The notes beneath the pieces were generated by a model that worked only from the letters and a program-made list of their open reading frames with translations, did not search any database and had not been told where the DNA came from. A program made the position numbers and the translations under genes. Below, piece after piece: positions 10,247 to 28,008 of a DNA stretch of 64,000 bases (position 1 is its first letter; the number at the start of each line of letters is the position of its first letter). This DNA is from Candidatus Saccharimonadales bacterium (GTDB lineage: Bacteria > Patescibacteriota > Saccharimonadia > Saccharimonadales > EFPC-124). The stretch is taken from contig DATEFB010000002.1 in NCBI GenBank assembly GCA_035280845.1, forward strand, positions 61,183 to 125,182, read 5' to 3'.

Positions 10247-10666
10247 ATGCCGCGTCCCACCTTCCAGGGTGTGCGTCTGATCGTCGGCAACGAGCACGAG
10301 CGTGTTCTGCGCCAGGCTCTGCCGGAAGCCCTTCGGGGCGACTTCGATTCGGGCCGCCGCCGCTACAACGGCAACATGCCCGCCATCATGGGCGACCCGC
10401 TCAACCTGGAGCTGGGCCTCTCGTGGGGCGTCCAGTACGGCCAGGGAACCATCACGGTCTGGGCCATCGACCCCAACATGAACCTGACCTACGAGCAGGT
10501 CCGTGAGTTCGAGGACCGCCACCACATCCGTGAGCACCCCCAGATCATGTTCGCCCCCCTCGCCCAGGAAGGCGACGAGCGGACGCGCGGCATCATGCAG
10601 CGCAACCACGTCACCTACCAGCACTGGGACGCTGGCCTCATCGGCCCCGGCTCCCCCAACCCGTGA
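10247..10666 (+). CDS. Hypothetical protein, high-GC island 1 (139 aa)
   Basis: This is the only frame in which nearly all third codon positions are G/C. It has a GAGGAG Shine-Dalgarno sequence, an ATG start and a TGA stop. I recognise no motif. Confidence 0.75.
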   Translation: MPRPTFQGVRLIVGNEHERVLRQALPEALRGDFDSGRRRYNGNMPAIMGDPLNLELGLSWGVQYGQGTITVWAIDPNMNLTYEQVREFEDRHHIREHPQIMFAPLAQEGDERTRGIMQRNHVTYQHWDAGLIGPGSPNP

Positions 10667-11476: not shown

Positions 11477-11824
11477 ATGACAGCACAGACACCAAAAGAG
11501 TACGCCGATCAGGTGAGCACGCAAATGCGCAAAGGTTTTTTGGTGTACTGCGTGCTGATGATTTGCAGTAAAGGAGAAATGTACAGCTCGGATATCATCC
11601 AGGAGCTGCGCGACACGTCGTTTGTGGTCGTAGAAGGTACTATGTACCCGCTGCTAAACCGCCTACAAAAAGATGGCCTGCTTCTGCACGACTGGAAAGA
11701 GTCACCCAGTGGGCCGCCACGCAAATATTACCGCATTAGTCCAGGCGGCCATGACGTTTTGCATGAGTTAAAGCACATGACCCAACAGTTTCAAATAGTA
11801 ATGACCAACCTAGAGAAAGAGTAG
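11477..11824 (+). CDS. PadR-family transcriptional regulator
   Basis: 115 aa. EGTMYPLLNRLQKDGLL...PPRKYYRISPGG is the PadR winged-helix signature. Confidence 0.85.
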   Translation: MTAQTPKEYADQVSTQMRKGFLVYCVLMICSKGEMYSSDIIQELRDTSFVVVEGTMYPLLNRLQKDGLLLHDWKESPSGPPRKYYRISPGGHDVLHELKHMTQQFQIVMTNLEKE

Positions 11825-11825
11825 T

Positions 11826-12887
11826 ATGAACAAAATCACCCAAATACACTTGGCAAAAGTACCCTATGCCATCGAACCTGGCGCCGAGCAAGAACTCAGC
11901 GCCTATCTGCAAGCCGTCCGCTCTAAAGTAGACGCCGATACTGCGAGCGAAGTTATGGTAGATATTGAGCTGCGCATTACCGAGCTGCTTGCAAGCCGCG
12001 GCATTAAGAAGGGCGACGTCATCACCACCCCTGATGTCCAGGCAGTCAAAGAGCAACTGGGTGCGCCCGAGCAATTTGCCGATACTCAGCCAGAAGCTGT
12101 GCCAGTCACCCCAACCAGCAAGAGGCGCTGGGGCCTGCCGGGCGCGCTCGCACTCGTTGGGCTGCTTGTGGTGGGATTTGTCTTTTGGGCAAACACGTTG
12201 CCGTTAAATTCCGAACCGCAGAGGCAGGCCTACCAGCAGTCAATCCAAAAGCTTCAAGTGAACGTAGATAGCGGTCATGTAGAAATTAAGGCTGGTGCCA
12301 CCGACGAGATTATTATTGAGCGCACCCTCATGTGGACTGGCGCAAAACCAACGCTCAGCGAAACATGGAATGGCAGTACGTTGTCGGTAAAAGCTGATTG
12401 CCCTAATGAGGGTGGCTGGCTTCTCTTTCGGCGTTCGTGCGCGGTGGACTACGTGATCCATGTTCCCCGGGCGATCACCGCCGAAATATATACAGAGTCA
12501 GGGGGCGTGGATGTCACCGAAATTGATGGCGATGTTACCGTCAGGACCGAAGCCGGGAATCTCCAATTCGAGAAGTTAAAAGGCGCGCTTGTGGCTGAAT
12601 CGAAAGCTGGCACCATTGATGCCCGCGCCCTCCAGTCGGCAAAGGTTGACGCTACGTCGCACGCTGGCAACATTGACCTGCGGTTTGATGCCGCGCCAAA
12701 AGCCGTAACCGCTAAAACGCAAGCTGGTAACGCAAGCATTGGCGTGCCCAAGGGTGCTGCATACACCGTGAAGGCAGACACGCAGGCTGGCAACCGTGAA
12801 GTAGGCGTTGAACAGAATTCTGCCGCTATCCAGACAATATCTGTTGAAAGCAGTGCTGGTAACGTGTCAGTGCAGTACATAAACTAG
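11826..12887 (+). CDS. PadR-associated membrane protein with a C-terminal beta-helical repeat domain (DUF4097-like)
   Basis: 353 aa, starting 2 nt after the padR stop. It has a central TM helix and repeated xAGNIDL/TxAGNxxx units (TEAGNLQF, SKAGTIDA, SHAGNIDL, TQAGNASI, TQAGNREV, SSAGNVSV). Confidence 0.7.
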   Translation: MNKITQIHLAKVPYAIEPGAEQELSAYLQAVRSKVDADTASEVMVDIELRITELLASRGIKKGDVITTPDVQAVKEQLGAPEQFADTQPEAVPVTPTSKRRWGLPGALALVGLLVVGFVFWANTLPLNSEPQRQAYQQSIQKLQVNVDSGHVEIKAGATDEIIIERTLMWTGAKPTLSETWNGSTLSVKADCPNEGGWLLFRRSCAVDYVIHVPRAITAEIYTESGGVDVTEIDGDVTVRTEAGNLQFEKLKGALVAESKAGTIDARALQSAKVDATSHAGNIDLRFDAAPKAVTAKTQAGNASIGVPKGAAYTVKADTQAGNREVGVEQNSAAIQTISVESSAGNVSVQYIN

Positions 12888-12906: not shown

Positions 12907-12935
12907 TTGACTTAATATGCTTAATATTATATAAT
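12907..12935 (+). promoter_or_regulatory. Sigma70-type promoter of high-GC island 2
   Basis: TTGACT, a 17-nt spacer, then TATAAT, located 33 nt upstream of the GTG at 12969. Confidence 0.6.
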
Positions 12936-12968
12936 TATACAGTTCGTAGAACCCTTTTGGGAGGAACT

Positions 12969-13418
12969 GTGCGTACATTGCTCGACCGCCTCCTGAAGAG
13001 GCGAAGCGTGAGATCGTTCGTAGCAGGTGCCGCTCTGACGCCGATCAGCTTTGGAATCTTCCTGGCTCTGATCCACGGCGCGGGCCTGGCCATCTTCACT
13101 GCCAGCCTGGTACGTGGGGTCGTGATGACCCCCGTCACGTTCGTCGCCAGCAGGCGGTTCACGTGGCGCGGCCAGAACTTCATTGGCGTGTGGTGGCAGC
13201 TGCTGATTCACGTGGTCAGCCGGCCGGTGACGTTCGGGATTCACCAGGGCATCATGCTGGTCAGCCTGAGCTTCCACGTCCACTACGCCTGGAGCTACCT
13301 GATCGCCGTGAGCCTCACCGGCCTCTTCAACTTCTACTGGGGCGAGAAAGTCACTTTCTCGCCACGCTGGGCTCAGCGAAGGGCTGCCAGACTTCAACTG
13401 TCGGTCCGTCCAGCCTGA
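12969..13418 (+). CDS. GtrA-like 4-TM membrane protein, high-GC island 2
   Basis: GC3-saturated frame. The GTG start lies 4 nt after a GGGAGGA Shine-Dalgarno sequence; the track start (TTG at 12957) falls inside that Shine-Dalgarno sequence. It has four TM helices, and the two motifs SRRFTW and NFYWGEKVTF match the paired GtrA motif N(R/K)xWxF. Confidence 0.7.
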   Translation: MRTLLDRLLKRRSVRSFVAGAALTPISFGIFLALIHGAGLAIFTASLVRGVVMTPVTFVASRRFTWRGQNFIGVWWQLLIHVVSRPVTFGIHQGIMLVSLSFHVHYAWSYLIAVSLTGLFNFYWGEKVTFSPRWAQRRAARLQLSVRPA

Positions 13419-13440
13419 ACCAGCCTGAGTTCTGCGGGTG

Positions 13441-13463
13441 CCCGGGGTCCTAGTGGCCCCGGG
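13441..13463 (+). terminator. GC-rich hairpin without a U tract after island 2
   Basis: CCCGGGG-TCCTAGTGG-CCCCGGG. Confidence 0.45.
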
Positions 13464-13479
13464 ATTTCCCTTGTAATCT

Positions 13480-13499
13480 ACAGACTGCGGTCTGTTTTT
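13480..13499 (+). terminator. Canonical rho-independent terminator
   Basis: ACAGAC-TGCG-GTCTGT followed by TTTTGTGTTT. Confidence 0.75.
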
Positions 13500-13599
13500 G
13501 TGTTTAAAGCACAGCTATTTTGACCTATCTTTGATGCACGCCAGCTTGGCTTTTTTGTTCCATAAGAAAAGGCACGGCGTGGTCTGCTATGCTAGCGGT

Positions 13600-14100: not shown

Positions 14101-17100
14101 CTAACGAGCCTGTACTTGGATGATTCCGAAGCGGGGGTCCGCGACAGCGTCACCATTTAAGCCGACTACGCGCAGGTATACGTCGCCCTTGGCACCGGCC
14201 GCAATGTTCGACCAGCTGCTCACCTTTAGGCCGGTTGTACTGACGTTGTGACCAAGGCCGGTGTTACCGCTGTCTAGGTAGTTCCATGTTGCCTGGTCTG
14301 TGGAGTACTGTATGCGCACTTCGGCGCTCGCTGAGCCGGCGGTTGAAATTGATACTTGGAAGCGAATCTGCTGCGCATCTGTCAAATCATATTGCATGCG
14401 GGATGATGCAACAGGGACATCGGTTGGTGTAAAGATTTCGGTTAATGCGGCCGGCATGTTGGTCCATTGGGCCGAGGCACCATTACCATTACCACCATAA
14501 ATGGATAGGCTGGCATTGAACCCGAGGCAGTTCTTCCAGGCACCGTTCTCGTAACAGCGGAATTTGTTGCTGTTGCTGTTGTAGTACATACCACCTGTGG
14601 CACCCGTTGGGTCACCAGAGGTGTTTTTGGTGTCGAGTACAAGCAAGGCGCCCGTCGCATCGGCGGTGGGGTTGCCGATGTAGACGTACGAGTTTGTGGT
14701 ATCAGCCACCAGAATCGGTGTGCCGGCGGCGTTTACGACGCTAAAGGCACCGGTCGTGTTGTTTGAGGTGGTGACGGTGAGAACATTATTTACCGAGGCG
14801 CCGCCATTAAAGACAGCATTGCCGCTCACGTTCACGGTACCAGCGATAATGGTGTTCCCGGCTGTTAATTGGCCACCGCTACCGCCTTCGGCAAGCGTCT
14901 CGCCACCCAGGCCCACTAGGTCGAGTGATGCACCAACTTTGACACGGGTACCACTTGTGTAATACACGGTGTTGCGCTCGTCGGTGGCATCGTTACCGCC
15001 AATGTAGTATACATAGCCGTTTACATTCAGCGAACCGCCACCGCCGCGGAGTGCTGGTAGATAGCTAGTATCGACAGTCCATGTCCCGACTGACCCATCG
15101 GCGTTTAGTGGTGCGTAACGAGTTTCGTCGGTGTAGCCAGAGCCGCTGTTGGTGTTGCCACCAAGGACGTATATGTAGCCGTTCATAACGAAGGTGCGGC
15201 CCAATGCTCGGTATGCAAAGCCCGGAGCGGTGTTAGTAACAGCGGTTGCTAGGCTGCCATCGGCGTTAAACCTGCCGTAGTATAGAGTGTTTTGGCCGGC
15301 GCCTGTATTGGTTGCCTTGCCGCCAATCACGTAGAAGTATCCGTTGGCAATCGCCCACGCAAAGCTGGCGCGGTTACCCGGAATCCAATCGCTTTGCGTG
15401 GTAAAGGTGCCTAGTGTACCATCGGCGTTAATTTTGGCACGACTAACGTCATTGCTGTGTGCAACCACTGCCGCTGTGCTGTCTAAGCCGCCCGCAATGT
15501 ACAGATAGCCGTTGTGGGCAAACATAGCACCATCTCGCAGGTCGTCTGGAAGTTGCGTCGATATAGTTGTCCATGAGCTCACTACACCATCATTGCCTGG
15601 TTTACCAACATAAATGTCGTCGGATGTAGCCGCACTCGATGTGCCACCAGCCACATAAATGTAGCCGTTGTACGTGGCGGCCATAGCATCACAGCTTGTA
15701 GCTGGCATGGTAGCCGATGTACTGGCCCAGGCGCCTGTTGTGCCATCTGCGTTTAGGCGAGTATGTTGTACGGAGTTTGTGTTTGCATTGGTGATGCTGC
15801 AGCCAGTGATTACATACATATAGCCGTTCAGGTAAATGGTCGAGTTGTGCGCACCACTACGAGCGGTGATAGTGTCGCTCTCGGTTGCAAATTCGTCGAC
15901 ATGACCGGTATTGCTGCCCAAGAGTGAGGTAAAGCCTTTTGCGCTGAAGTCGCCTAATACCGATACGCCGTCGCGCAACATTGTATTACCGCTCACGTTT
16001 AATGTACCCATGATGTTGGTGTTGCCGGCTGTGAGGGCGCCACCACTTCCGCCCTCGGCTGCGTTGCCATTGGTTAGGCCAACTAGGTCAAGCCCGCCAC
16101 CAATCCGCACGCGTGAACCGGTGTTGTACCATGCTGTGTTTGTAGCTGCGCTGCCGCTATAGCCTCCTACTGCGTATATATGGCTGTTGTAGGTAAGAGC
16201 GTTAAAGTTGGATCGGTTGGCTGGCAAGGTTGTGGTGTCAGTCTGCCAGGCACCCAGGGTGCCATCGGCATTTAACTTGGCATAGTACACGGTGTTTGTA
16301 GCAGTGCTGTCGTTTTCGCCGCCAATGGCGTACAGGTAGCCATTCATAACGCCTGCGCCCAACCACGCTTTAACGGCGGGCAGAGGGCTGGTGGTAGTGC
16401 CCGGGTTGGTGACTGAACCGTCGGCATTTATTTTGCCATAGTACACATTGGTATCGTACGGCGGACCGGCGACGCCGCCGATAGCGTAGAAGTAGCCATT
16501 AGCGATCACTATGCCGGCAGAGCGATGCGTACTGCCGCTGAACCAGTTACAACCACAGTTGCCTTCGCCAATCGAGCCGTCGGCATTTATCTTGTGGTAG
16601 TAGATGCTTGGGTTGTTCATGTTCGTTTCGTACATGTAGCCGTTGTATGCAGTAATAGTAGTTTCGTCGTTGTCGTTCATAAGGATATTGGCAGTCTTCC
16701 ATTCAGTGATGGTGCCATCGACGTTTGGTTTGGCGTAGTACAGGTAGGCATTATCTGGGTCGCCAAAACCACCACCACCGTGTACGTAAATGTAACCGTT
16801 AAAGCTGGTGACTGTACCAGGCATACAAGTGGCGTTTGGAATAGTGGCAGTGGTGCCCCACGATCCAATACTGCCATCGGCGTTCAGTTTGGCATAGTAC
16901 GACGTCGTAGTGCGGGTGTCGGTGCTATCGCAGCCACCAAGGTTGTATATGTACCCGTTGACAATAGTTTGCCCCGAGCCGTACCGTGCGCTCGGCAGCG
17001 TGTCTGCGTCGGCAGTGAATGCTCCAACATGACCAGTATTGTTGCCGAGCAGATCTATTAGCGAATCGACGGTATTAACATTCATGAGGTCACCATTAGT

Positions 17101-20100
17101 GCTGTTAAGGACGCGGAAGGCTGTAGTGCTGTCGGTGCTGCTTTTGGCGATAATGCTGGCCGCCGAGTTGTTGGTAGAGAGGGTTAGGTTGCCTGTGCCG
17201 GCTTGGATGGTTGTTGCGCTGGTTGTATTGGTCGAGCCGATAGTCAAAGCCTGTGCAGCTGCGCCCGTTGCGATGTTTACGGTACGGGCCTGGGCGCCCG
17301 AGCCAATGTTGATTGCGCCTGTGCCAGAGTTCAGGCTAATGGCCGTGTTTGTGCCGTTGCCCACGGTTACGGCGCTGGCGTTGGTGGTGCCTAGGAAGAC
17401 GGTGCCGGTTGCTACGCTGGCCGTACCAACATCTACCAATACGTTGCCCGACGTACCTGACGTAGCGTTACCACTGGTGATAACCACGCCGCCAGTGTTA
17501 CCGCTGGTCGTTGAATCACCGCTGCGGACGTTGGCTGTGCCCGATGTGCTGGTTGCGCCGCTGACGTTACCACTTGCCAGCGTTGCGAAGTTCGAGTTAG
17601 TGCTTGCTGCAGTCTGGCTGTTGCTCGAGAATACACCGCCAGCAGTTATGATGACACCGGTCGATTGTACGCGGAACATAAAGTTGCCTACGCTGTCGAC
17701 GCCCTCGTAAAAGTTAGCGTTCCAGGTCGGAGAAAAGCCCTTTACCTGTATCCCAACGCGGCTGTCGTTGGTCGGCGTCACTTGCAGCTGGCCAGTAATG
17801 TTGTCTGCTGCTGTTTGGCTGTAGGCACCAATCGCTACTTTGCGTGCGCTGGCATCGACACGGAAGATTGGCGAGGTCGCTGCGTTTTGGATTTCGAAGG
17901 CCAGGTTGCCGTCGGTGCGGTTTTTGAATGTTGTGGCGCCTTCGTCGGCAATGTTCAGGACATCTGCGGCAGTGGCGGTGCCGTCAGTCACACGGAAGAG
18001 TGGTTCGGCCACAGTTGAGCTGACATGCAGCTTGGCAGCGGGCGCGTTTGTGCCAACGCCTACGCGGCTGGTACTTCCCTGTACGAACAGTGCGTTTACG
18101 TCGGCATCGCCCTCAACCCTAAAGTCGGTGGCCTCGGAGTTTTCGTTGAAGACAATCTGACCGCCAACCGAGCCGTCGATTAAGTGGCGGGTCGTGCCGT
18201 TTGCGCTCTCGCGGAACTGCCAGATTTTAATTGCCTGGGTGATTTCGTTACCGTTCTCCATGACTAACTTAACGCGCTGGGTGCCGGTCAGGTCGCCATT
18301 ATCAAACACGCTGAAGAATAGCTTCGCGCCAGCTGCGTCAAAGTCGAGGTCGCCACCGCTGGTGCGAAAGCGGTATTGCTTGGTCGCGGTGTCGGCGTCG
18401 CGGACGTTAAGGTTGCCATTCACCGTGAGGGCATTGTCAGGAGCGGCAGTGTTAACACCAATGCGGTTGTTGGTGGTGTCGGCCAGGAAGACGGTGCTGG
18501 TGCCGGCAGCGTTTAGGATGCGGAAGGCGGCGGTGCTGTTAGTGCTGTTTTGGAATAATGCCTGCCCGGTGGTGTTTACCTGTGCCAGTAAGGTTGACCC
18601 GTTGCCCACTTTAAGTGGTTGGTCTGGGAAGAGGTTGCCGATCGAGACGAAGTTGTCGTTGATTTTTAGGCCGTTTGTTCCCACGGTCTCAATGCGGAAG
18701 TAATCGTTGGTACTGTCCCATTGCAGGAAGCCGTTTTGGCCACCGGCGGTAGAGTCACCAAGAATCAGGCGTGGGTTGCCGCCGTTGTTATAGACAGCTG
18801 CATCTCCGCCCAAGACTTCGAACTTCGAGAAGCTGGCCGTGCCACCAATGCCTACGCGACCGTTTGTGCTGTCGGCGTTAAGAAGGGTTGATGTGCCGGC
18901 TTGATCCAATATGCGGAAGGCGTTTATGCTGTCGGTGCTGTTCTGGAAGGTCGCTGCGCCTATGGTCGAGAAGGTAGCGATTGATGTGCCGTTTGTCTCG
19001 AGCTCTAGTGCAAAGGCATCATTGGTGCCCAGGACGGCTGTTGCGCCAAAGCTATTGCCGCCCTGCACGAATGCCGCACCGGAGCCTGTGCTAAAGCCAC
19101 AGTTTGCGGCATTGCGCATACATACCGTGCCCGATTCGTCACCGAAGGTTATGACATTGGCGGCAGTCGGGTCCGTGATGGCGAAGGATGTCTCGAAACC
19201 ATCGGCGGTAGTGCCTTCGAAGACAAGTGGCGTGCCACCCTGTATGACACCCATAAAGCTAATCAGATCCGCCGCGGCGTTGCCGAGTGTAACATTGCCA
19301 TTTGCGGCCAGTGCCTCGGTAATAGACAGGCCGCCGCCATTAGTGGTGGTGAGTCCACTGCGCCCAATTGTAATGGCGCTGGCATTTGTGGTGCCTACGC
19401 TCAGCGCGCCGTTTGTGCCGCTGCCAGTCTTAGAGCCAGAATCAATGGTGACGTTGCCGCTTGACGAGTTGGTGCCAACGCCATTACCCGTAACAAGGTA
19501 GAGTGTACCAGTCGTTCCACCGGTGCCGCCAGCAATCGAACCGGTGTTTATGAGTACGTCGCCCGAGCTGCCACTGCCGCCGGTCACGTTGCCACTTCGG
19601 AGGGTGAAGCTGTTTGTGTTTCCGCCGGTTGTCTTGTCATTTGTCTGGACGGTTGCGTTCGAGTTTGAGCCGTTCCACGTAAAGCCTACGATGCCATTTT
19701 CGTCTGGGCTAAAGACGGCCAGGCTTGGCTGATGCACGCCAGGGCGGGCATCAAAGATAGACAGTCCGCGCGCAGTGTTTTGGGCCGATGCCTCAAGGCC
19801 AAGCGCCATGATTTGACCGAAGCTGCCTGGATCCATGTTCTGGATGCTGAACTTGGCGGCAACGTTTGCGCCAACTGGCGTAGCGTACGAGTCTAGGTCG
19901 CCAGTCCCGCTTATGCGGATCGCACCCTGCACTTGCAGCCCGGCGTTACTGATGACTGGTGTGTTGTTCGCGCCCAGGTTGATGCCCACCCGTGAGTTTG
20001 TGGAGTCAACGGTGAACAGGTTGCCACCGGCAGCCGTCTTAACATTGAACGCGGCTGTAGAGTTGGCGCTGTTCTGGAAGAGTGCTGCGCCACCTGCTGG

Positions 20101-23100
20101 CGAAATGCGGAAGACATCGACTGCGTCGTCTTGAATAGCGAAGCGGCCGTTTGTGCTGCACGAGGTGTCACATTCCAGATTAATCAGGAAGTTTGAATCT
20201 GTTGCAGTGTCTGCCATGGTAATTGCAATGTCGCGGGCGTCGGTTGCGGCGATGGTGTTGCCGCCGTTATAGGCACCTTGCAGTGTGACTGCGCCGCTGG
20301 TGGTAATACAATCTTTCCAGGCGCCGTTTTCGTAGCAGCGGAACTTGGCGGCCGTTGCGTTGTAGTACATGGATCCGTCGGTGCCGCTTGGGTCACCTGC
20401 GTTCAGCTTGGTATCGAGGATCAGCAGGTGGCCGTCGTTGTCTGAATCGTACCCAATCTGCACCGAAGTGTCGTCTGCAAACAGTGACGATGTGCCGCCG
20501 GTTGTGTTGACCTTGAAGTAGCCAAACGAACCTTGCAGGTTCAGGTCGAGGCGGCCGTTCTGGCCGTCGATCTGCATAATGTCGGTCGCGCCGTTCTTGA
20601 ATGTGAATCCAAAGACGCTGTTAAAGTCGAGGTTCAAACCGCCAGCGGTCAGCAGCAAATCACCTGCGCTGGTAATGTCACCGCCGTTCACAGCAATGTC
20701 GCCAGCAGTAACAATGTTACCTGTTGCGCCAGTCACGTCAAAGTTGGTGAAATCAAGGTTGGCTGTGGTGCCGGCAATGGTGTTGTCGGCGACGCTCAGC
20801 GCAGTTACGATTTCGGCGTCAGTCAAATCAACAGCGGTCTGGATGGTGCCTGCTGCCGAGCTGATCTGTAAGGCGGTTGTTACCGCGGTGTCTACGTCGG
20901 CGTTGTCGAGCACTAACAGCTGGTCGGTTAGGCCGCTACCACCAATATTCTGGATTAACTGACCGCGCTGCGTGCCGCCTGTAGTGTTGTTGGTAACGCC
21001 AATGTAGTTCAGGGTCAGGGCGTTGGTGCCAGTGACCGTGTTGGTGAGCTCCAGATTCTCGGTGTCTGCCAGGTTCATATCGACGTCAGTATTGAACGTC
21101 GCCACACCGTTAAATACCGCTGTGGTTGCGAACGTCGTGGCGTCCTGTATGTCCAGGATGTCAGCGCCGTTAATAACGATGTCGTTACCGGCACCCGAAC
21201 TTGCAATCGTCATTGCACCAGTGCCAGTTATATTGCCGATATTTACCAGGTTGCCCGTGTTGTCTACGCGGTCCACACTGTTAGTCTGCAATGTGCCGCC
21301 GCTGGAGTTGATGTTTCCAGTTGCTGTTGCGGTACCGGTGGTGCTCGTGCCGGTTGCGCTGACAGCAAAGTATGTTGTGCCGCCAGCGTTGTTCTGGACT
21401 TCGAGCAAGTTAGCTCCCAGGGCGCTTGAGGCATCGCGAATGGTGAGGGCACCGCGAGTTGCGTCCAGGGTTAACTCTGGGTTTGTGGAGTTGTTGTAGG
21501 CGCTTTGAAGGGTGACTCCAGCGCCCGCACAGTTTCCGCTGCTGGTACAAACGGTATATGTGCCAGCAGTTAAAGCAGGAAGGTTAAGGGTTGTGTTAGC
21601 AGTCGGCGTTGTAAAGCCGAGGGTAGTAGTGAACGATCCGGAGGTGCCAGCCAATGTGCTGGTGCTGGCGCCCTGCAGGCTCCAGTTGCCAGAGACTGCG
21701 TTAATGGTCACGCCGCCGCCACCTTTTATGGTAGTGACGCTGGATGCACCGGTATTGCCAACAGTAACAGTTTGAGCCTGGTTGCCACCACTGGTGTCGC
21801 CGATGGTTATTGTGCGGGCAATGTTACTGCCGCGGCCGATGTTGATTGTCGTGGTGTTCTGGTCGCCCAGCGCTACTAGCCCTGCCCCGCCGGTCTGGAG
21901 AGCCAATGTGCTGGTGCCCGCGGCCGAGACCGTAAGGTTGCCGCTGCTTGTTGACCAGGTAGAGCCACCGCCCGCAGTAAGGGTAAGTGATCCGTTGCTT
22001 GTTACTGAACCGGTGCCATTCGATGCGAGCGAGAACGTACCGGTGCTTTGGTTCAAGTTACCGGTAACAGTGGTGTTCTCGTTCAGGGCGATTGCCGTTG
22101 CCGTGCCACCCAATGTCAGTGTGCCCGCAGCGGCTGTGTCGAGCAATGGCGCCAGGAACGAGGTGTTTGCCCGGCCCGTGCCGCTAATTCGGAAGTTGGC
22201 TGTGGTCTGGTCGATGCTGTTCTGGTTCTGGATGTAGTTGGCGCTGCCGCTAGTCGGGGCGAAACCACAGGCCGTGCTGCTTTGGATACACACCGTGCCA
22301 GCCTCGTCAGCAAAGGTTACGGTGCGGTTTGCGCCCAAGGCAGCGGTCTGCAGAAGTACGGTGTTGCTGCTGGCGTCCGACAGGGTAATGGTTCCGGCTT
22401 GAGTGGTTGTGCCGAGGTTGAGCGCTCCACCTTGAACATCCACATCACCCCCAGTTACAATATCGCCAGTTTGGGCGACCTGGAAGGCGCCAACGGTTAA
22501 GAACCCACCCGTGACATCCAGGCTGCCGGCAACGGTTGTGTCCTGGTTTAGGTTGATGGCGGTCGCATTGGTCGTGCCAATGTTGAGTGTGCCAGCGCTG
22601 GCAGTATCCAGAAGTGGAGTTTGCAAGGCGGTTGTGGCGGCGAGTGTGCCAGTGACGGTTACGATGCTGCCAGACTCACTTAGTAACGAGTCGCCGATAG
22701 CGTTGCTGCCAGTGAATTTAGCAATCCGGCCAGTGGTGCCACCAGCAGTAGTAACACCACCGCCAACACCCGCACAGTTACCTACTGTCGTACAAATGTC
22801 ATACGTGCCAGCTGCAGCGGTCAGTAAGCGGTAGGTGACGTTGGCTGTTGGCGTCTGGAAGGCTAGCGATGTTGTACTGCCGGCGTTGGTGGCAGTTATG
22901 GTGCTGGCGGCTGCACCCTGCAGGGTGAAGTTTTGGGTTGTAATGCCCACCGTCAGCGCACCAGTCGGCGAGATGGTATTGGCTGTTAGCGTGCCCGTAA
23001 CCGTTGCGCCACCATTTAAGTTAGCGGCCCCGGCGACGGCCAACGTTCCCGTAAGGCTTGCAGTACTGCTAATAGTTTGGCCGTTCACCGTGCCAGTTAC

Positions 23101-26100
23101 AGTCATGTTGCCGGCAGGTGTTACAGCAAGGCGGCTGGTGCCGTTCAGTTGAATGTCTATCAGGTTGCCAGTTGCTGCCACGTTTGTATTGTTAACGGTC
23201 AGCATAGCAGCACTTGCCTGGCTACTGCTTAAGGTCAGCTGGCCAAAGGTTGGTGCGGCGGTTGTGTTGATGTTCTGGATAGTGTTAATAACCCCAACGC
23301 TGGCGCTGAAGTTGGTGCTGTTAAATTGGGCGATACCTTTCTGGCTCGTACTGGCGTCGTCAATAGTAACAGTGGTGCCCACGCCTGTTGCGTTGGCGAG
23401 GGTCAATGCGCCGGTCAATCCATTCAGACTGTCGACTGCGCCAACGCCACCACCACCGCCACCACTGGTGACACAGGTTGCGCAGGTAATGTTACCTGCC
23501 GCGTCAATCGCAAGCGGGCCGCTCGCACTCACCGCGACTGTGCCTGTTGCGTTTGGCAGGGTGATCGTTTTGTTGCTGCCGCTTGGCGTGGCAAATACCA
23601 GGCTGTTGGTGATGCCGCCATCGGTTTCGCTAATAGTTGTGTCAGCGCCTTGCAGGGTCAGGTCCTGGCTGGTCGAGCCGATTGTCATGGCTGCGGCAGG
23701 AGTAATGGTGTTAACGGCCAAAGTGCCGCCAACGGTGATTGTGCTGCCGCTTTCGGTGATGATCGAATCAACAATAGTGCCACTGCCGCTGAACTTAGCG
23801 ATTGCGCCCGTAGTTCCGCCAGGAGTCGTAACGCCACCGCCCACACCAGAACAGTTGCCAACAGTGGTACATATGTCGTACGTGCCCGCGGCAGCGGTCA
23901 GTAAGCGGTAAGTGACATTGGCTGTTGGCGTCTGGAAGCTCACGGTTGTTGTATTCGCGCCGCTTGTTGCCGTAATAGTGCTGCTTGCGCTGCCCTGCAC
24001 CAGGAAGCTTTGCGTTGTTGCGCCAACAGTTAATGCACCGCTTGGCGTAATGGTATTGGCGGTTAATGTGCCAGTAACAGTTGCACCACCGTTTAGGCTG
24101 GCAAGCCCGGCTACCGCCAGCGTGCCAGTCAGGTTTGCGGCGCTACTAACGGTTTGGCCGTTCACCGTGCCAGTCAGGGTCATGTTGCCAGCAGGAGTGA
24201 CTGCTAGGCGGCTCGTACCATTCAGCTGAACGTCTAACAGGTTACCGGTCGCGCCAGCGTTGGTGTTGTTGACCAACAGCATGCCGTTGCTGGCCTGGCT
24301 GCTGGTGAGCGTTAGGCGGCCAAAGGTTGGGGCGCTGGCAACGGCAATATCCTGAATGGTGTTGATGGTGCCGCTCGCTGCCGAGAAGTTGGTGCTGTTG
24401 AACTGGGCAATACCTTTTTGGCTGGTGCTGGCGTCCTGGATGGTTATGGTGCTACCTACGCCGCTGGCGTTGGCAATGCTGAGTGCGCCTGTTAACCCGT
24501 TCAGGCTCGTCACACCAGATCCGGTCAAGGCACAGGTAGGACAGGCGATGTTGCCAGCTGCATCCAGGGTGATTGGACCGCTGGCGCTCACGGCAATTGT
24601 GCCGGTGGCGTTTGGCACAGTGATGGTTTTATTGCTGCCACTTGGTGTCGCGAATGTCAGGTTGTTGGTGATGCCGCCGTTCGTTGCCGTGAGGCTGGTT
24701 GTCGCGCCTTGCAGAAGCAGGTTCTGGCCAGTTGCGCCAATGGTCAGTGCGCCAGTTGGAGTAATGGTGTTTACAGCCAACACGCCGCCAACGCTTACTG
24801 TAGTGCCGTTGTCGGATATGATTGAGTCAACAATTGTGTTTGCTGCGCTGAACTTAGCCAACTGGTTGGTTGTGCCACCAGGAGAAGTGACGCCGCCGCC
24901 AACACCTGCACAGTTGCCTACAGATGTACAAATGTCGTACGCGCCAGCCGCAGCCGTGAGCAAACGGTAGGTGACGTTGGCTGTTGGGCTTTGGAAGCTC
25001 AGGCTGGTGGTACTTGCGCCGTTGGTGGCGCTAAAGGTGCTACTGGCGTTGCCCTGCAGGCTGAGACTTTGACCAGTTGCCCCAACGGTCATGGCGCCAG
25101 TCGGTGTAATAGTGTTGGCAGTCAGGGTGCCAGTAACCGTTGCACCACCGTTTAAGTTGGCAGCGCCCGCAACAGCAAGCGTGCCAGTCAGGTTTGCGGC
25201 GCTGCTAATAGTCTGGCCGTTCAATGTACCGGTTAATGTCATGTTGCCGGCGGGAGTAACGGCTAAACGGCTTGTGCTATTCAATTGCAGGTCAATCAGG
25301 TTACCAGTACCGCTGATGTTTGTGTTGTTCACTAAAAGCATTGGGCTGGTAGCCTGGCTGCTGGTCAGGGTGAGTGCGCCAAATGTGGGAGTCGCGGTGA
25401 CGTTAATGTTTTGGATGGTGTTAATGCTGCCGCTCGCTGCCGAGAAGTTTGTGCTGTTAAACTGGGCAATGCCTTTTTGGGCGGTGCTTGCATCCTGGAT
25501 GGTGATGGTACTGCCCACGCCCGTAGCGTTGGCGATACTCAGCGCACCAGTTAATCCGTTCAGGCTAGTAACTGCCGACCCCGAAGTTAAACAAGTGGCA
25601 CAGGTCAGGTTGCCTGCGGCGTCAAGGGCGAGTGGGCCGCTTGCGCTCACGGCAATTGTGCCGGTAGCGTTTGGTACGGTGATTGTCTTGTTGCCGCCGC
25701 TTGGGGTTGCGAAGGTGAGTGTATTTGTTACTCCGCCACTTGTTGCGGTCAGGCTTGTGCTGGCTCCCTGTAGGGTCAGGTTTTGTGCAATTGCGCCGAT
25801 TGTCAGTGGGCCGCTTGGCGTAATGGTGTTAACGGCTAACGCGCCAGCAATGCTGACGGTCGCGCCGTTGTCGCTGATGATCGAGTTGCCAATAGTGTTG
25901 CTGCCAGTGAATTTAGCCAGCTGGTTAGTAGTGCCGCCAGGAGTCGATACGCTGCCGCCCACGCCCACACAGTTGCCGGCGGTGGTGCAGATGTCGTATG
26001 TGCCAGCGGCAGCAGTGAGCAAGCGGTAGTTTACGTTGGCAGTTGGCGTCTGGAAGCTGACGGTAGTCGTGCTGCCGGCGTTTGTTGCCGTTAACGTGGT

Positions 26101-28008
26101 GCTGCCGTTACCCTGCAGGGTCAGGCTTTGGGCTGCGGTGCCAACAGTTAATGCTCCGCCAGGAGTAATGTTGAGCGCACCGGTGCTGGTTACGTCGCCA
26201 CCATTCACAGCTACGTCACCCGAGGCAGTAATGTTCGTTGCGACAGCCAGTGACCCGGTAAAGCTTGCGGCCGAGCTGATGGTTTGGCCATTAATTGTGC
26301 CGCTAACAGTCATGTTTCCGGCAGGAGTCAGTGCCAGGCGGCTCGCACCGTTTAGCTGAATGTCTACAAGGTTGCCAGTTGCTCCGCCGTTGGTATTATT
26401 CACCAAAAGCATTGGGTTGGTGGCTTGGCTGCTGGTTACGGTCAGACGGCCAAAGGTTGGCGTGCTGGTGACGGCAATATCCTGAATTGTGTTGATGATG
26501 CCGCTGGCCGCAGTAAAGTTAGTAGCGTTAAACTGTGCGATACCTTTTTGGGCAGTGCTGGCGTCGTTCAGGGTGATTGTTGTGCCAGAGCCTGTAGCGT
26601 TGGCGACGTTTAATGCGCCGGTTAACCCGTTGACGCTCAAGACGCTGGCACCACCAGGGCAGGCCTGGAATGCCGGGGCGCCACCAGTAGACATGAAACA
26701 AAGCCCTGAGCCACCAGCTGTAACCGCGGTGAGGGCGCCGCTGCCCTGGCCAATAACTACACCGTTGGCGGCGAGTGCTGTGGCGCCCGTGCCACCGTTG
26801 CCAACCGTTAGCGCTGTGCTAAGCGCAAGGCTGCCGGTCACGCTTAAGTCGCCATTTACAGTAACTGTTGCGCCAGTTTCGGAAAGAAGCGAGTCCTCGA
26901 TTGTCTGAACGCCGGTAAATTTGGCGATCCGGCCGGTTGTGCCACCAGAGCTCTGCACGGTACCAGTACCTGCGCCGGTGTTGCTGATGGTTATGTTGCC
27001 ATTGCCATCGTTTACAACGTTAATCCCTGCGCCGCCAGCCGCGCTTACCACGCCGCTGTTTTGCAGCTCGCCAGCGGGGGTGATGGTCAGGCCGCTCCCA
27101 ACAGTAACGTCGCCGGTGCGGCCGCCAAACGAGGTGACACCAGAGTTGGTGATTGTTGTGCCGTCTACAGCAATGCCGGGGCCGCCGACAAACGTCACGT
27201 TGCCGGTCTGGCCCTGCACAGTCAGGACGCCGTTGTTAGTAATCTGGCCGTTCGCACCGCTTAAGCCCTGGCCCAGGGTGATTGTGCCGCTGAAGCCACC
27301 AATGTTCTGTACGACGCTGCTGGTGTCGCTGATCGGCACGAACTTGCTGCCGTTAAAGTACGACATCTGGTTTGTGCCTTGGTCATAGTAGATCTGGCCA
27401 CGCGCTGCGTTACTCGGCTGGGCGGATGGCGAAATAATGAATGCGCTGTTGGCACGCAGTGGGCCGTTGACTAGCAGGCTGCGGGTGCCAAGTAATGAGA
27501 CATCGCCTTCGGTGCCAAGGTCGTCCAGCGGGATCTGAACCGTGTTAAAGCGGCTCGATGTCAGCACCTGGCCCTCGTCCTTCTTGCCTAAGAAGTTCAT
27601 GGCGACGGCACTTATACCGCCAACGATCAACAGCGCAACAGCAGCAATGCCGCCGTACTTGGCGATTTTTTTCCAGTTGAAGTTGCGCTTAGGACCCCGT
27701 GGGGCAAGTGGTTTTACCACTGGCGGGGTGACTGGTGCCTGGGTGAACCCAGGCTGCGTAGCAGAAGATGATTGCAATGGTTGGACTGGTGTCGGTGCTG
27801 CAGCAATTATTGGTTGGGCTGGCGTGGGTGCTGACAGAGGTGTCGGCGCGCTGACGGGCTGATTGCTGACAGGAAGAGGCTGCGCCACCGCAAGGTTGGG
27901 CACAGATGTTGGAATCACTTGGCCAAAGCTTACGGACGCAGACTGCTGCGCTGTATCGCTAGAACCAGAGTTTCCAGGTACTCGAACGTCCTGAAATTTA
28001 TCGTCCAT
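14101..28008 (-). CDS. Giant (4,635-aa) signal-anchored surface protein; putative adhesin or fibre
   Basis: A single uninterrupted 13,908-nt ORF. It has a Pro/Ala/Gln-rich N-terminal ~115 aa and one TM helix (KYGGIAAVALLIVGGISAVAMNFL, nt ~27590-27680). The remaining ~4,500 aa are rich in Thr/Gly/Asn/Ala/Ser/Val and include four ~357-aa repeats, two Kelch-type propellers, and a C-terminal ~130-aa domain. Confidence 0.95.
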   Translation of the reverse strand: MDDKFQDVRVPGNSGSSDTAQQSASVSFGQVIPTSVPNLAVAQPLPVSNQPVSAPTPLSAPTPAQPIIAAAPTPVQPLQSSSATQPGFTQAPVTPPVVKPLAPRGPKRNFNWKKIAKYGGIAAVALLIVGGISAVAMNFLGKKDEGQVLTSSRFNTVQIPLDDLGTEGDVSLLGTRSLLVNGPLRANSAFIISPSAQPSNAARGQIYYDQGTNQMSYFNGSKFVPISDTSSVVQNIGGFSGTITLGQGLSGANGQITNNGVLTVQGQTGNVTFVGGPGIAVDGTTITNSGVTSFGGRTGDVTVGSGLTITPAGELQNSGVVSAAGGAGINVVNDGNGNITISNTGAGTGTVQSSGGTTGRIAKFTGVQTIEDSLLSETGATVTVNGDLSVTGSLALSTALTVGNGGTGATALAANGVVIGQGSGALTAVTAGGSGLCFMSTGGAPAFQACPGGASVLSVNGLTGALNVANATGSGTTITLNDASTAQKGIAQFNATNFTAASGIINTIQDIAVTSTPTFGRLTVTSSQATNPMLLVNNTNGGATGNLVDIQLNGASRLALTPAGNMTVSGTINGQTISSAASFTGSLAVATNITASGDVAVNGGDVTSTGALNITPGGALTVGTAAQSLTLQGNGSTTLTATNAGSTTTVSFQTPTANVNYRLLTAAAGTYDICTTAGNCVGVGGSVSTPGGTTNQLAKFTGSNTIGNSIISDNGATVSIAGALAVNTITPSGPLTIGAIAQNLTLQGASTSLTATSGGVTNTLTFATPSGGNKTITVPNATGTIAVSASGPLALDAAGNLTCATCLTSGSAVTSLNGLTGALSIANATGVGSTITIQDASTAQKGIAQFNSTNFSAASGSINTIQNINVTATPTFGALTLTSSQATSPMLLVNNTNISGTGNLIDLQLNSTSRLAVTPAGNMTLTGTLNGQTISSAANLTGTLAVAGAANLNGGATVTGTLTANTITPTGAMTVGATGQSLSLQGNASSTFSATNGASTTSLSFQSPTANVTYRLLTAAAGAYDICTSVGNCAGVGGGVTSPGGTTNQLAKFSAANTIVDSIISDNGTTVSVGGVLAVNTITPTGALTIGATGQNLLLQGATTSLTATNGGITNNLTFATPSGSNKTITVPNATGTIAVSASGPITLDAAGNIACPTCALTGSGVTSLNGLTGALSIANASGVGSTITIQDASTSQKGIAQFNSTNFSAASGTINTIQDIAVASAPTFGRLTLTSSQASNGMLLVNNTNAGATGNLLDVQLNGTSRLAVTPAGNMTLTGTVNGQTVSSAANLTGTLAVAGLASLNGGATVTGTLTANTITPSGALTVGATTQSFLVQGSASSTITATSGANTTTVSFQTPTANVTYRLLTAAAGTYDICTTVGNCSGVGGGVTTPGGTTGAIAKFSGSGTIVDSIITESGSTITVGGTLAVNTITPAAAMTIGSTSQDLTLQGADTTISETDGGITNSLVFATPSGSNKTITLPNATGTVAVSASGPLAIDAAGNITCATCVTSGGGGGGVGAVDSLNGLTGALTLANATGVGTTVTIDDASTSQKGIAQFNSTNFSASVGVINTIQNINTTAAPTFGQLTLSSSQASAAMLTVNNTNVAATGNLIDIQLNGTSRLAVTPAGNMTVTGTVNGQTISSTASLTGTLAVAGAANLNGGATVTGTLTANTISPTGALTVGITTQNFTLQGAAASTITATNAGSTTSLAFQTPTANVTYRLLTAAAGTYDICTTVGNCAGVGGGVTTAGGTTGRIAKFTGSNAIGDSLLSESGSIVTVTGTLAATTALQTPLLDTASAGTLNIGTTNATAINLNQDTTVAGSLDVTGGFLTVGAFQVAQTGDIVTGGDVDVQGGALNLGTTTQAGTITLSDASSNTVLLQTAALGANRTVTFADEAGTVCIQSSTACGFAPTSGSANYIQNQNSIDQTTANFRISGTGRANTSFLAPLLDTAAAGTLTLGGTATAIALNENTTVTGNLNQSTGTFSLASNGTGSVTSNGSLTLTAGGGSTWSTSSGNLTVSAAGTSTLALQTGGAGLVALGDQNTTTINIGRGSNIARTITIGDTSGGNQAQTVTVGNTGASSVTTIKGGGGVTINAVSGNWSLQGASTSTLAGTSGSFTTTLGFTTPTANTTLNLPALTAGTYTVCTSSGNCAGAGVTLQSAYNNSTNPELTLDATRGALTIRDASSALGANLLEVQNNAGGTTYFAVSATGTSTTGTATATGNINSSGGTLQTNSVDRVDNTGNLVNIGNITGTGAMTIASSGAGNDIVINGADILDIQDATTFATTAVFNGVATFNTDVDMNLADTENLELTNTVTGTNALTLNYIGVTNNTTGGTQRGQLIQNIGGSGLTDQLLVLDNADVDTAVTTALQISSAAGTIQTAVDLTDAEIVTALSVADNTIAGTTANLDFTNFDVTGATGNIVTAGDIAVNGGDITSAGDLLLTAGGLNLDFNSVFGFTFKNGATDIMQIDGQNGRLDLNLQGSFGYFKVNTTGGTSSLFADDTSVQIGYDSDNDGHLLILDTKLNAGDPSGTDGSMYYNATAAKFRCYENGAWKDCITTSGAVTLQGAYNGGNTIAATDARDIAITMADTATDSNFLINLECDTSCSTNGRFAIQDDAVDVFRISPAGGAALFQNSANSTAAFNVKTAAGGNLFTVDSTNSRVGINLGANNTPVISNAGLQVQGAIRISGTGDLDSYATPVGANVAAKFSIQNMDPGSFGQIMALGLEASAQNTARGLSIFDARPGVHQPSLAVFSPDENGIVGFTWNGSNSNATVQTNDKTTGGNTNSFTLRSGNVTGGSGSSGDVLINTGSIAGGTGGTTGTLYLVTGNGVGTNSSSGNVTIDSGSKTGSGTNGALSVGTTNASAITIGRSGLTTTNGGGLSITEALAANGNVTLGNAAADLISFMGVIQGGTPLVFEGTTADGFETSFAITDPTAANVITFGDESGTVCMRNAANCGFSTGSGAAFVQGGNSFGATAVLGTNDAFALELETNGTSIATFSTIGAATFQNSTDSINAFRILDQAGTSTLLNADSTNGRVGIGGTASFSKFEVLGGDAAVYNNGGNPRLILGDSTAGGQNGFLQWDSTNDYFRIETVGTNGLKINDNFVSIGNLFPDQPLKVGNGSTLLAQVNTTGQALFQNSTNSTAAFRILNAAGTSTVFLADTTNNRIGVNTAAPDNALTVNGNLNVRDADTATKQYRFRTSGGDLDFDAAGAKLFFSVFDNGDLTGTQRVKLVMENGNEITQAIKIWQFRESANGTTRHLIDGSVGGQIVFNENSEATDFRVEGDADVNALFVQGSTSRVGVGTNAPAAKLHVSSTVAEPLFRVTDGTATAADVLNIADEGATTFKNRTDGNLAFEIQNAATSPIFRVDASARKVAIGAYSQTAADNITGQLQVTPTNDSRVGIQVKGFSPTWNANFYEGVDSVGNFMFRVQSTGVIITAGGVFSSNSQTAASTNSNFATLASGNVSGATSTSGTANVRSGDSTTSGNTGGVVITSGNATSGTSGNVLVDVGTASVATGTVFLGTTNASAVTVGNGTNTAISLNSGTGAINIGSGAQARTVNIATGAAAQALTIGSTNTTSATTIQAGTGNLTLSTNNSAASIIAKSSTDSTTAFRVLNSTNGDLMNVNTVDSLIDLLGNNTGHVGAFTADADTLPSARYGSGQTIVNGYIYNLGGCDSTDTRTTTSYYAKLNADGSIGSWGTTATIPNATCMPGTVTSFNGYIYVHGGGGFGDPDNAYLYYAKPNVDGTITEWKTANILMNDNDETTITAYNGYMYETNMNNPSIYYHKINADGSIGEGNCGCNWFSGSTHRSAGIVIANGYFYAIGGVAGPPYDTNVYYGKINADGSVTNPGTTTSPLPAVKAWLGAGVMNGYLYAIGGENDSTATNTVYYAKLNADGTLGAWQTDTTTLPANRSNFNALTYNSHIYAVGGYSGSAATNTAWYNTGSRVRIGGGLDLVGLTNGNAAEGGSGGALTAGNTNIMGTLNVSGNTMLRDGVSVLGDFSAKGFTSLLGSNTGHVDEFATESDTITARSGAHNSTIYLNGYMYVITGCSITNANTNSVQHTRLNADGTTGAWASTSATMPATSCDAMAATYNGYIYVAGGTSSAATSDDIYVGKPGNDGVVSSWTTISTQLPDDLRDGAMFAHNGYLYIAGGLDSTAAVVAHSNDVSRAKINADGTLGTFTTQSDWIPGNRASFAWAIANGYFYVIGGKATNTGAGQNTLYYGRFNADGSLATAVTNTAPGFAYRALGRTFVMNGYIYVLGGNTNSGSGYTDETRYAPLNADGSVGTWTVDTSYLPALRGGGGSLNVNGYVYYIGGNDATDERNTVYYTSGTRVKVGASLDLVGLGGETLAEGGSGGQLTAGNTIIAGTVNVSGNAVFNGGASVNNVLTVTTSNNTTGAFSVVNAAGTPILVADTTNSYVYIGNPTADATGALLVLDTKNTSGDPTGATGGMYYNSNSNKFRCYENGAWKNCLGFNASLSIYGGNGNGASAQWTNMPAALTEIFTPTDVPVASSRMQYDLTDAQQIRFQVSISTAGSASAEVRIQYSTDQATWNYLDSGNTGLGHNVSTTGLKVSSWSNIAAGAKGDVYLRVVGLNGDAVADPRFGIIQVQAR
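14950..17020 (-). repeat. Duplicated ~340-aa module in the giant gene: a Kelch-type beta-propeller plus a G(A/G)SLDLVGL...AEGGSGG..TAGNT linker
   Basis: There are two sets of about six blades, each with NGY(I/M/F/L)Y..GG....YYAK(L/I)NADG(S/T). The sets lie at about nt 16120-17020 and 14950-15880. Each is followed by LDLVGL..AEGGSGG(A/Q)LTAGNT..G(T)(L/V)NVSGN. Confidence 0.8.
22650..26640 (-). repeat. Four tandem coding repeats of ~1.06-1.08 kb (353-359 aa) inside the giant gene
   Basis: The units begin at the S(L/V)NGLTGAL codons at nt 26637, 25566, 24507 and 23430, giving spacings of 1071, 1059 and 1077 nt. The fourth unit diverges after ~250 aa. The repeats are also visible as periodic antisense ORFs in the track (22835, 23912, ~24990, 26036). 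Confidence 0.9.

Follow-up and report, generated by a model that had tools for sequence, protein, structure and literature searches.

Contig DATEFB010000002.1 of a Candidatus Saccharimonadales bacterium carries, within the 64,000-nucleotide stretch analysed here (positions 61,183 to 125,182 of its forward strand; 'the window'), a small GC-rich island with a single gene, at window positions 12969–13418, for a membrane protein of the GtrA family. An earlier note, written from the sequence alone, took this gene to be imported and derived from a host, and to lack a partner glycosyltransferase. The locus therefore raises two questions: whether the gene is a recent acquisition, and how its product might act by itself. 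The gene has its own promoter and terminator, is orthologous to and syntenic with a gene in a related genome, is under purifying selection and has no linked glycosyltransferase. We think it probable that it is a resident, monocistronic Saccharimonadales gene for a divergent member of the family, a stand-alone, GtcA-like protein that would serve in trans as a translocator of, or adaptor for, polyprenyl-phosphate-linked sugars.

Relatives of the protein were sought by a word-indexed search of 5.8 billion proteins and by an exhaustive phmmer search of 1.84 billion representative proteins (E ≤ 1e-3). The first returned only a 97% identical twin (P0001). The second gave 11 matches, the best at 57%, 45% and 46% identity and the following four at 26–33%; the best seven of the 11, when looked up, all came from JGI/Logan metagenomic assemblies. 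The four closest relatives (97%, 57%, 46% and 45%) are all metagenomic, and wherever their genomic context could be read it matches the gene order of the window. A profile search added distant GtrA proteins only. The distant relatives (26–28%) lie in gene-dense metagenomic contigs, one of them a 479-kb NCBI assembly contig, in two recurrent contexts, beside PolA or beside a tRNA U5-methyltransferase gene. No relative was found among viral contigs, nor at E ≤ 1e-3 among phage and plasmid records, and no actinobacterial relative turned up in the searches made. Two scans of the GTDB representative genomes with short peptide patterns, one from the GtrA alignment and one from the flanking 90-amino-acid (aa) protein, gave no relative, nor did two pattern-based scans of JGI metagenome contigs; all four are weak negatives. 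A search of the literature for the accessions found nothing.

The copy of the gene on contigs L004 and L005 (52–57% identical) occupies the same site, in the same gene order, as in the window. The shared order runs from a variable high-GC open reading frame (ORF) through a K+ channel gene (65%), the gene for the 90-aa membrane protein (87%) and the GtrA gene to a homologue of the downstream 165-aa gene, which is 36% identical over a 42-aa local alignment. When the window is aligned with L004, the −10 box, the 5' untranslated region (5'UTR), the Shine–Dalgarno sequence and the GTG start all align. By the Nei–Gojobori method, the GtrA genes of the window and L004 differ by 1.36 substitutions per synonymous site (dS) and 0.36 per non-synonymous site (dN), giving a dN/dS of ∼0.27; the 90-aa gene has a dS of 1.30, and the K+ channel gene a dN of 0.30 with synonymous sites saturated. 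Because these values match those of the flanking genes and dN/dS is ∼0.27, we conclude that the gene has co-diverged with its neighbours under purifying selection. In L008 (46%) and in the contig of P0001 (97%), a small KGG-like gene on the other strand still accompanies the GtrA gene.

The high-GC island itself, from which the idea of import arose, is real and sharply bounded. GC content in 80-nucleotide windows is 0.55–0.68 from ∼12940 to 13499, compared with 0.21–0.30 in the promoter region and ∼0.41–0.47 downstream, with abrupt steps where the ORF begins and past the first hairpin. GC content at third codon positions (GC3) is 0.807 in the gene, vs. 0.595 on average over 50 genes of the window; when the same amino acids were encoded at random under the codon usage of the window, GC3 was 0.614 ± 0.039, and none of 5000 simulations reached the observed 0.811, five standard deviations above expectation. 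The protein has 15 Arg to 2 Lys, whereas the window mean of R/(R+K) is 0.47. The Arg codons are mixed (AGA 2, AGG 3, CGA 2, CGC 3, CGG 2, CGT 3), 10 of the 15 being AGA, AGG, CGA or CGT, which is unlike typical actinobacterial genes. Alien codon usage was considered and rejected, the synonymous-codon likelihood under window usage being ordinary (z = −0.6). The anomaly lies in a shift to GC-ending codons, with no sign of a foreign dialect of codon usage.

A recent import from a high-GC, actinobacterial host, which would have set a foreign island under a native-looking promoter, is the reading that the GC3 excess, the preponderance of Arg over Lys and the sharp GC steps at first favour, together with the further high-GC ORFs present nearby and in related contigs. 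Yet L004 and L005 carry the orthologue in the same place, its 5'UTR is conserved and its dS equals that of a flanking gene, and the orthologue is itself GC3-rich in L004, so that the bias must be older than the split between the two. The Arg codons are not dominated by CGC and CGG; the phage and plasmid records and the pattern-limited GTDB scans gave no match; and the best seven of the 11 relatives are metagenomic. Flanking repeats, integrase and tRNA are all lacking: we found no integrase or transposase around the gene and no adjacent tRNA (the nearest is 6 kb off), and the repeats present are short and at chance level. A PHROG search gave no match. Among the features looked for in a recent island, atypical composition is present, but the gene is not absent from the same site in related genomes, its closest homologues are not from a donor taxon and signatures of mobility were not seen. 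The recent-import reading is thus largely refuted, and we regard it as very improbable.

It follows that neither the word 'imported' nor the word 'host-derived' is supported. Against the first stand the syntenic orthologue, the matching dS, the conserved 5'UTR and the failure to find a donor; as far as the data reach, the gene falls among vertically inherited Patescibacteria sequences, the placement that the earlier note itself had named as contrary to import. Against the second stand closest relatives that are metagenomic and, where context could be read, syntenic, with no actinobacterial, phage or plasmid relative found in the searches made. From these comparisons the gene appears to be a resident one, apparently inherited from an ancestor, with no recent acquisition from a host.

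How old the compositional bias is can be judged from the relatives. GC3 exceeds that of the flanking genes by 0.22 in the window, 0.19 in L004 (0.70 vs. ∼0.51), 0.12 in L006 (0.62 vs. ∼0.50) and about 0.08 in L008 and L009 (∼0.68–0.69 vs. ∼0.60), where the GtrA gene lies inside the range of its neighbours. The bias arose before the window and L004 diverged, since the L004 orthologue shares it, and it must be either maintained or very old, because synonymous sites are near saturation between the two and a passive relic of a donor should have faded. We take elevated GC3 to be an old and probably maintained feature of the gene, and no evidence of recent import.

An ancient version of the transfer is less easily set aside. 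The ancestor of this Saccharimonadales clade could have acquired the gene from an unsampled high-GC donor, after which it would have descended vertically with incomplete amelioration, its function being as proposed below. GC3 above that of the flanks in every relative examined, to a decreasing degree, is what this would predict; the family is tiny and patchy (11 relatives), and the Arg-rich composition also fits. Nevertheless, with a dS of ∼1.3 relative to L004, near saturation, a passive relic should have decayed, the donor lineage was not found in the searches, and GC3 of the gene is unexceptional among its neighbours in L008 and L009. We consider an ancient acquisition unlikely on balance, albeit the most credible of the alternatives to a gene that has simply been resident.

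The assignment of the protein to the GtrA family is correct but already public, NCBI's entry for the gene, HKX72475.1, being labelled 'GtrA family protein'. The hidden Markov model check that had been proposed was run: the match to Pfam PF04138 (GtrA_DPMS_TM; E = 2.1e-11, 44.5 bits vs. a cut-off of 26.1) exceeds the curated cut-off across nearly the whole model (positions 4–117 of 117). An AlphaFold model, with 37 relatives as input, has a mean predicted local distance difference test score (pLDDT) of 93.3 and shows the expected four transmembrane (TM) helices, at residues 2–37, 42–65, 74–101 and 106–129, with which the hydropathy profile of the 149-aa protein is consistent. A profile built from the protein and nine relatives matched one family of solved structure, the C-terminal TM domain of Pyrococcus furiosus dolichyl-phosphate mannose synthase (PfDPMS; E = 2.2e-8, residues 11–131). 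Foldseek searches of the PDB agreed, the top three matches being the PfDPMS entries 9EP0, 5MLZ and 5MM1 (prob 1.00, TMq 0.55–0.57) and all remaining ones having E ≥ 2. The protein is a divergent, lineage-restricted member of the GtrA family with the four-TM fold.

The two motifs singled out earlier, SRRFTW and NFYWGEKVTF, are both encoded where they were said to be. Among 10 relatives, T65 and W66 are invariant in the region of the first motif, and R62 and R67 nearly so; in the region of the second, F130 is invariant and N121, K127 and G118 nearly so. Three polar residues within the membrane, R49, Q93 (TM3) and N121 (TM4), are also nearly invariant among the 10. The protein has 17 K/R and 2 D/E, and its basic residues are gathered at the N-terminus, in the TM2–TM3 loop and at the C-terminus; under the positive-inside rule, this distribution suggests that both termini and both motifs face the cytoplasm. 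The additional C-terminal helix (residues 132–146) is present in the closest relatives, P0001, P0013 and P0003, and not in more distant ones.

Positions 12907–13499 of the plus strand form a single, complete and compact transcription unit made up of promoter, Shine–Dalgarno sequence, GTG start, ORF and two hairpins (Table 1). The ORF with its GTG start after GGGAGGA stands in the sequence as first described. The NCBI entry begins later, giving a protein of 136 aa, while the 149-aa form adds a basic N-terminal segment that is modelled as helical; we prefer the longer form because GGGAGGA and GTG (12959–12971) are conserved in the L004 orthologue. The terminator region (95 nucleotides) has a folding z of −2.3, and a scan of the unit against Rfam for RNA elements gave no match at E ≤ 1. 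An antisense ORF (12927–13397) was rejected as a genuine gene: its full length is not kept in L004, and the sense frame has the low dN/dS given above.

Table 1. Features of the GtrA transcription unit and its product, in window coordinates.
Feature	Position	Strand	Remarks
Sigma-70-like promoter, TTGACT-17-TATAAT	12907..12935	+	Consensus matched at 11/12 positions; −10 box and 5'UTR kept in L004 orthologue
Shine–Dalgarno sequence, GGGAGGA	12959..12965	+	Three bases ahead of GTG; GGGAGGA followed by GTG also upstream of L004 orthologue
Coding sequence of GtrA-family membrane protein, 149 aa, four TM helices	12969..13418	+	GTG start at 12969; PF04138; AlphaFold model; HKX72475.1 in NCBI
Motif 1, SRRFTW	13149..13166	+	Predicted cytoplasmic end of TM2; aligns with PfDPMS WTFK segment
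Motif 2, NFYWGEKVTF	13329..13358	+	End of TM4
Extra Arg-rich C-terminal helix, residues 132–146, PRWAQRRAARLQLSV	13362..13406	+	Modelled helix, block pLDDT 86–93
GC-rich hairpin, just past stop codon, inside GC-rich stretch	13441..13463	+	
Intrinsic-terminator-like hairpin ACAGAC-TGCG-GTCTGT (13480–13495), then T-run TTTTTGTGTTT	13480..13505	+	

The promoter had also been said to resemble closely that of a neighbouring high-GC ORF, island 1. This resemblance is weak, since only the 11-mer TTGACTTAATA is common to the two promoters; it occurs twice, vs. 0.58 occurrences expected, and at least two matches arose in 11 of 100 shuffles. The −10 hexamers of the two promoters are not the same. A promoter cassette common to island 1 and the GtrA gene was therefore rejected, the shared 11-mer being neither significant nor conserved in L004, where the promoter of the orthologue reads TTGACAATAGA.

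We then asked how an orphan GtrA protein might work. Among the ORFs of the 64-kb window that were scanned or have precomputed matches, none showed a GT2 or GT-C Pfam domain, and the view that no partner glycosyltransferase adjoins the gene stands. In Listeria monocytogenes, GtcA serves the glycosylation of both wall teichoic acid and lipoteichoic acid, via different GT-C enzymes, and in Bacillus subtilis gtcA lies in the ywcC operon whereas csbB/yfhO form a separate operon (PMC7389260). Because GtcA serves more than one pathway with partner genes in a separate operon, orphan status is not anomalous. Suitable partner enzymes do exist in saccharibacteria, since one from soil has genes for three dolichol-phosphate mannosyltransferases and for a GT87 polyprenol-phosphate-mannose transferase (PMC6031116).

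GtcA (L. monocytogenes Lmo2549, B. subtilis YwcD) is in our view the best functional analogy for this orphan. It is likewise a small, stand-alone GtrA-family protein of a Gram-positive-type envelope, and it is encoded away from the GT2 and GT-C genes while acting in more than one glycosylation pathway in trans (PMC7389260). The window protein differs in its extra Arg-rich C-terminal helix and in belonging to a very small, divergent subfamily. By this analogy, the protein would sit N-in/C-in in the cytoplasmic membrane, as GtcA and GtrA do. A GT2 enzyme would load a sugar onto polyprenyl phosphate on the inner side, the GtrA protein would help carry the polyprenyl-phosphate-linked sugar from the cytoplasmic to the outer face, and a GT-C enzyme would pass the sugar outside to a wall polymer or surface protein, both partner enzymes presumably being encoded elsewhere in the genome. 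R49, Q93 and N121 may line the path of the headgroup and are candidates for contacting it.

The other members of the family that are best known offer less close parallels. The GtrA of phages SfV and SfX (Shigella flexneri) belongs to the same Pfam family and shares the two-hairpin TM layout and a short basic/aromatic motif after TM2 and TM4. However, identity to SfV GtrA is 18% over 111 aligned columns and not significant by BLASTP, and the phage protein has 120 aa rather than 149; identity is low throughout the GtrA family (PMC12992685), in line with this figure. Furthermore, SfV gtrA lies in an operon with GT2 (gtrB) and GT-C (gtrV) genes beside an integrase, whereas the gene of the window is monocistronic, with no mobile element in its surroundings. 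The phage-type gtrABC serotype-conversion layout is accordingly not what we see: the window ORFs that were scanned gave neither a GT2 nor a GT-C domain, and no PHROG match and no phage or viral relative was found. The TM domain of PfDPMS (5MLZ, 5MM0, 5MM1, 9EP0) is the only solved structure that matches, over ∼120 columns, although it is fused to a GT2 catalytic domain and is 15% identical. GtrA proteins lack the polar-pocket residues that are proposed to act in flipping by type-III DPMS (PMC12992685).

The role of a translocator can itself be questioned. The protein might move no lipid at all, and instead be a membrane scaffold that recruits or stabilizes a GT-C glycosyltransferase, as proposed for Mycobacterium tuberculosis Rv3789, with the Arg-rich C-terminal helix as the docking element. 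The evidence on Rv3789 conflicts, some of it pointing to a flippase and some to an anchor for AftA (PMC7389260), and the restriction of helix 132–146 to the closest relatives would suit a docking element. Against a scaffold, the nearly invariant intrahelical polar residues R49, Q93 and N121 fit a substrate path more naturally, and there is no partner to set it against. We judge a pure scaffold rather improbable, though less so than recent import. Rv3789 resembles the window protein in family and small size, is involved in cell-wall arabinosylation (PMC7389260) and comes from the presumed donor or host phylum; it differs in its disputed role and in that the window gene has no glycan genes nearby. 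One phmmer match, P0007, encoded in a metagenomic contig, has 119 aa and is thus like Rv3789 in length. Rv3789 has about 121 aa and is encoded beside cell-wall arabinan genes.

Several points weigh against a GtcA-like translocator or adaptor. No partner GT2 or GT-C enzyme was seen in the part covered, which is 64 kb of a 212-kb contig. In the literature cited, flippase activity has been directly shown for no GtrA protein, and views on what Rv3789 does are divided (PMC7389260). The essential residues of GtcA are R95 (TM3) and N132 (TM4) (PMC7389260), of which Q93 and N121 are at most candidate counterparts. Similarity to the founding phage GtrA, that of SfV, is marginal (18% identity, hhalign E = 0.0014, probability 17%). 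Finally, the five-standard-deviation GC3 excess and the 15:2 bias of Arg over Lys do not follow from this reading.

In the relatives, one candidate for a linked partner was seen. On L006 (7186–9768, minus strand), a gene transcribed divergently from that of a distant GtrA relative encodes a protein of 860 aa whose GT2 domain is confined to residues 139–206 (25.9 bits); it is the only such candidate in any relative. A conserved glycosyltransferase neighbour was rejected as a general feature, because this protein adjoins the GtrA gene in L006 and L007 only and the related contig of P0006 is without it.

Some of the contigs with distant relatives hold further genes of unusual composition or content. 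ORFs at L006 10474–10947 (GC3 0.86) and L009 4487–4972 (GC3 0.74), in contigs of ∼50–54% GC, have N-termini that by our reading resemble lipoprotein signals, and one of the two lies directly downstream of a distant GtrA relative. Secreted or envelope proteins encoded by high-GC3 genes seem to be a recurrent trait of these genomes. Proteins with the PE-PPE domain (PF08237), which is typical of Mycobacteriales, are encoded at L009 14004–15221 and L010 14962–16179, in gene-dense contigs with distant GtrA relatives; these genes could reflect gene exchange with actinobacterial hosts.

The wider window fits a saccharibacterium. Its RecA, RuvB, ATP synthase beta and GspE proteins are exact matches to HKX72503.1, HKX72498.1, HKX72479.1 and HKX72517.1 of a Candidatus Saccharimonadales metagenome-assembled genome, and it also encodes type IV pilus genes, ComEC, an F-type ATP synthase, RuvABC, RecA and TsaB/E. 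The neighbours of the GtrA gene are PadR, DUF4097 and hypothetical membrane protein genes. The PadR and DUF4097 pair (11477–12887, with its own TTGACA/TAACAT promoter) is not in L004, where the terminator of the 90-aa gene directly precedes the GtrA promoter; a two-gene insertion or deletion has occurred just upstream.

The 3' side also differs between relatives. Four related contigs (L004 2467–2640, L005 710–883, L008 1248–1403 and the contig of the 97% relative P0001) have a small, basic KGG-like gene (51–57 aa, minus strand) that separates GtrA from the gene for the downstream membrane protein; it is missing from the window at 13419–13599. The C-terminus of the GtrA protein reads …LSVRPA in the window and …LSAAQPEPA in P0001. 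The missing gene and the altered C-terminus together suggest a recent deletion at the 3' end in the window.

The island 1 ORF (10247–10666; NCBI HKX72470.1, hypothetical) has a GC3 of 0.89 and one relative (62% identity) among 5.8 billion proteins. This relative is at another locus, in a Patescibacteria-like contig (L011 6378–8370), and adjoins a secreted Amidase_2 gene; both genes are GC-rich (0.575, vs. ∼0.46 in the flanking genes). In L004 (1–1048), the equivalent slot is occupied by an unrelated high-GC ORF of 119 aa and by a gene of low GC content (0.37), which we take to resemble a Panacea/SocA-type antitoxin. This slot, which precedes the K+ channel gene, therefore seems to be a site of variable cargo.

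On its other side the GtrA unit faces a giant gene (14101–28008, minus strand) for a repetitive protein of 4635 aa, in which Thr, Ser, Gly and Ala abound and Kelch-type repeats lie near the C-terminus. The location beside a giant surface-protein locus, to which the earlier note had drawn attention, holds as a matter of position; we found no functional link, the giant gene being convergent with the GtrA unit and a separate gene and terminator intervening. A bolder scheme would join the two: a Saccharimonadales-specific subfamily, taken long ago from a high-GC and possibly actinobacterial host, whose GC- and Arg-richness is actively maintained, would glycosylate the cell's own surface with lipid-linked sugars, perhaps on host-derived polyprenyl carriers, and the giant adhesin-like neighbour would be among the possible targets. 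We hold this to be highly improbable, if a shade less so than recent import; were it true, attachment to the host, or mimicry of the host, would be shaped by it.

Taken alone, the gene carries little weight, since its annotation is correct and its family is large and known, with orphan status as the norm. It does belong to a very small, divergent GtrA subfamily, so far found only in Saccharimonadales-like contigs, and this subfamily would mark a route of surface glycosylation in these episymbionts. The gene also illustrates that a marked anomaly of composition, here a GC3 five standard deviations higher than expected, can outlast divergence to synonymous saturation in step with the neighbouring genes. 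Before a GC island in a Patescibacteria genome is taken for a recent transfer from host to symbiont, synteny and homology should therefore be checked.

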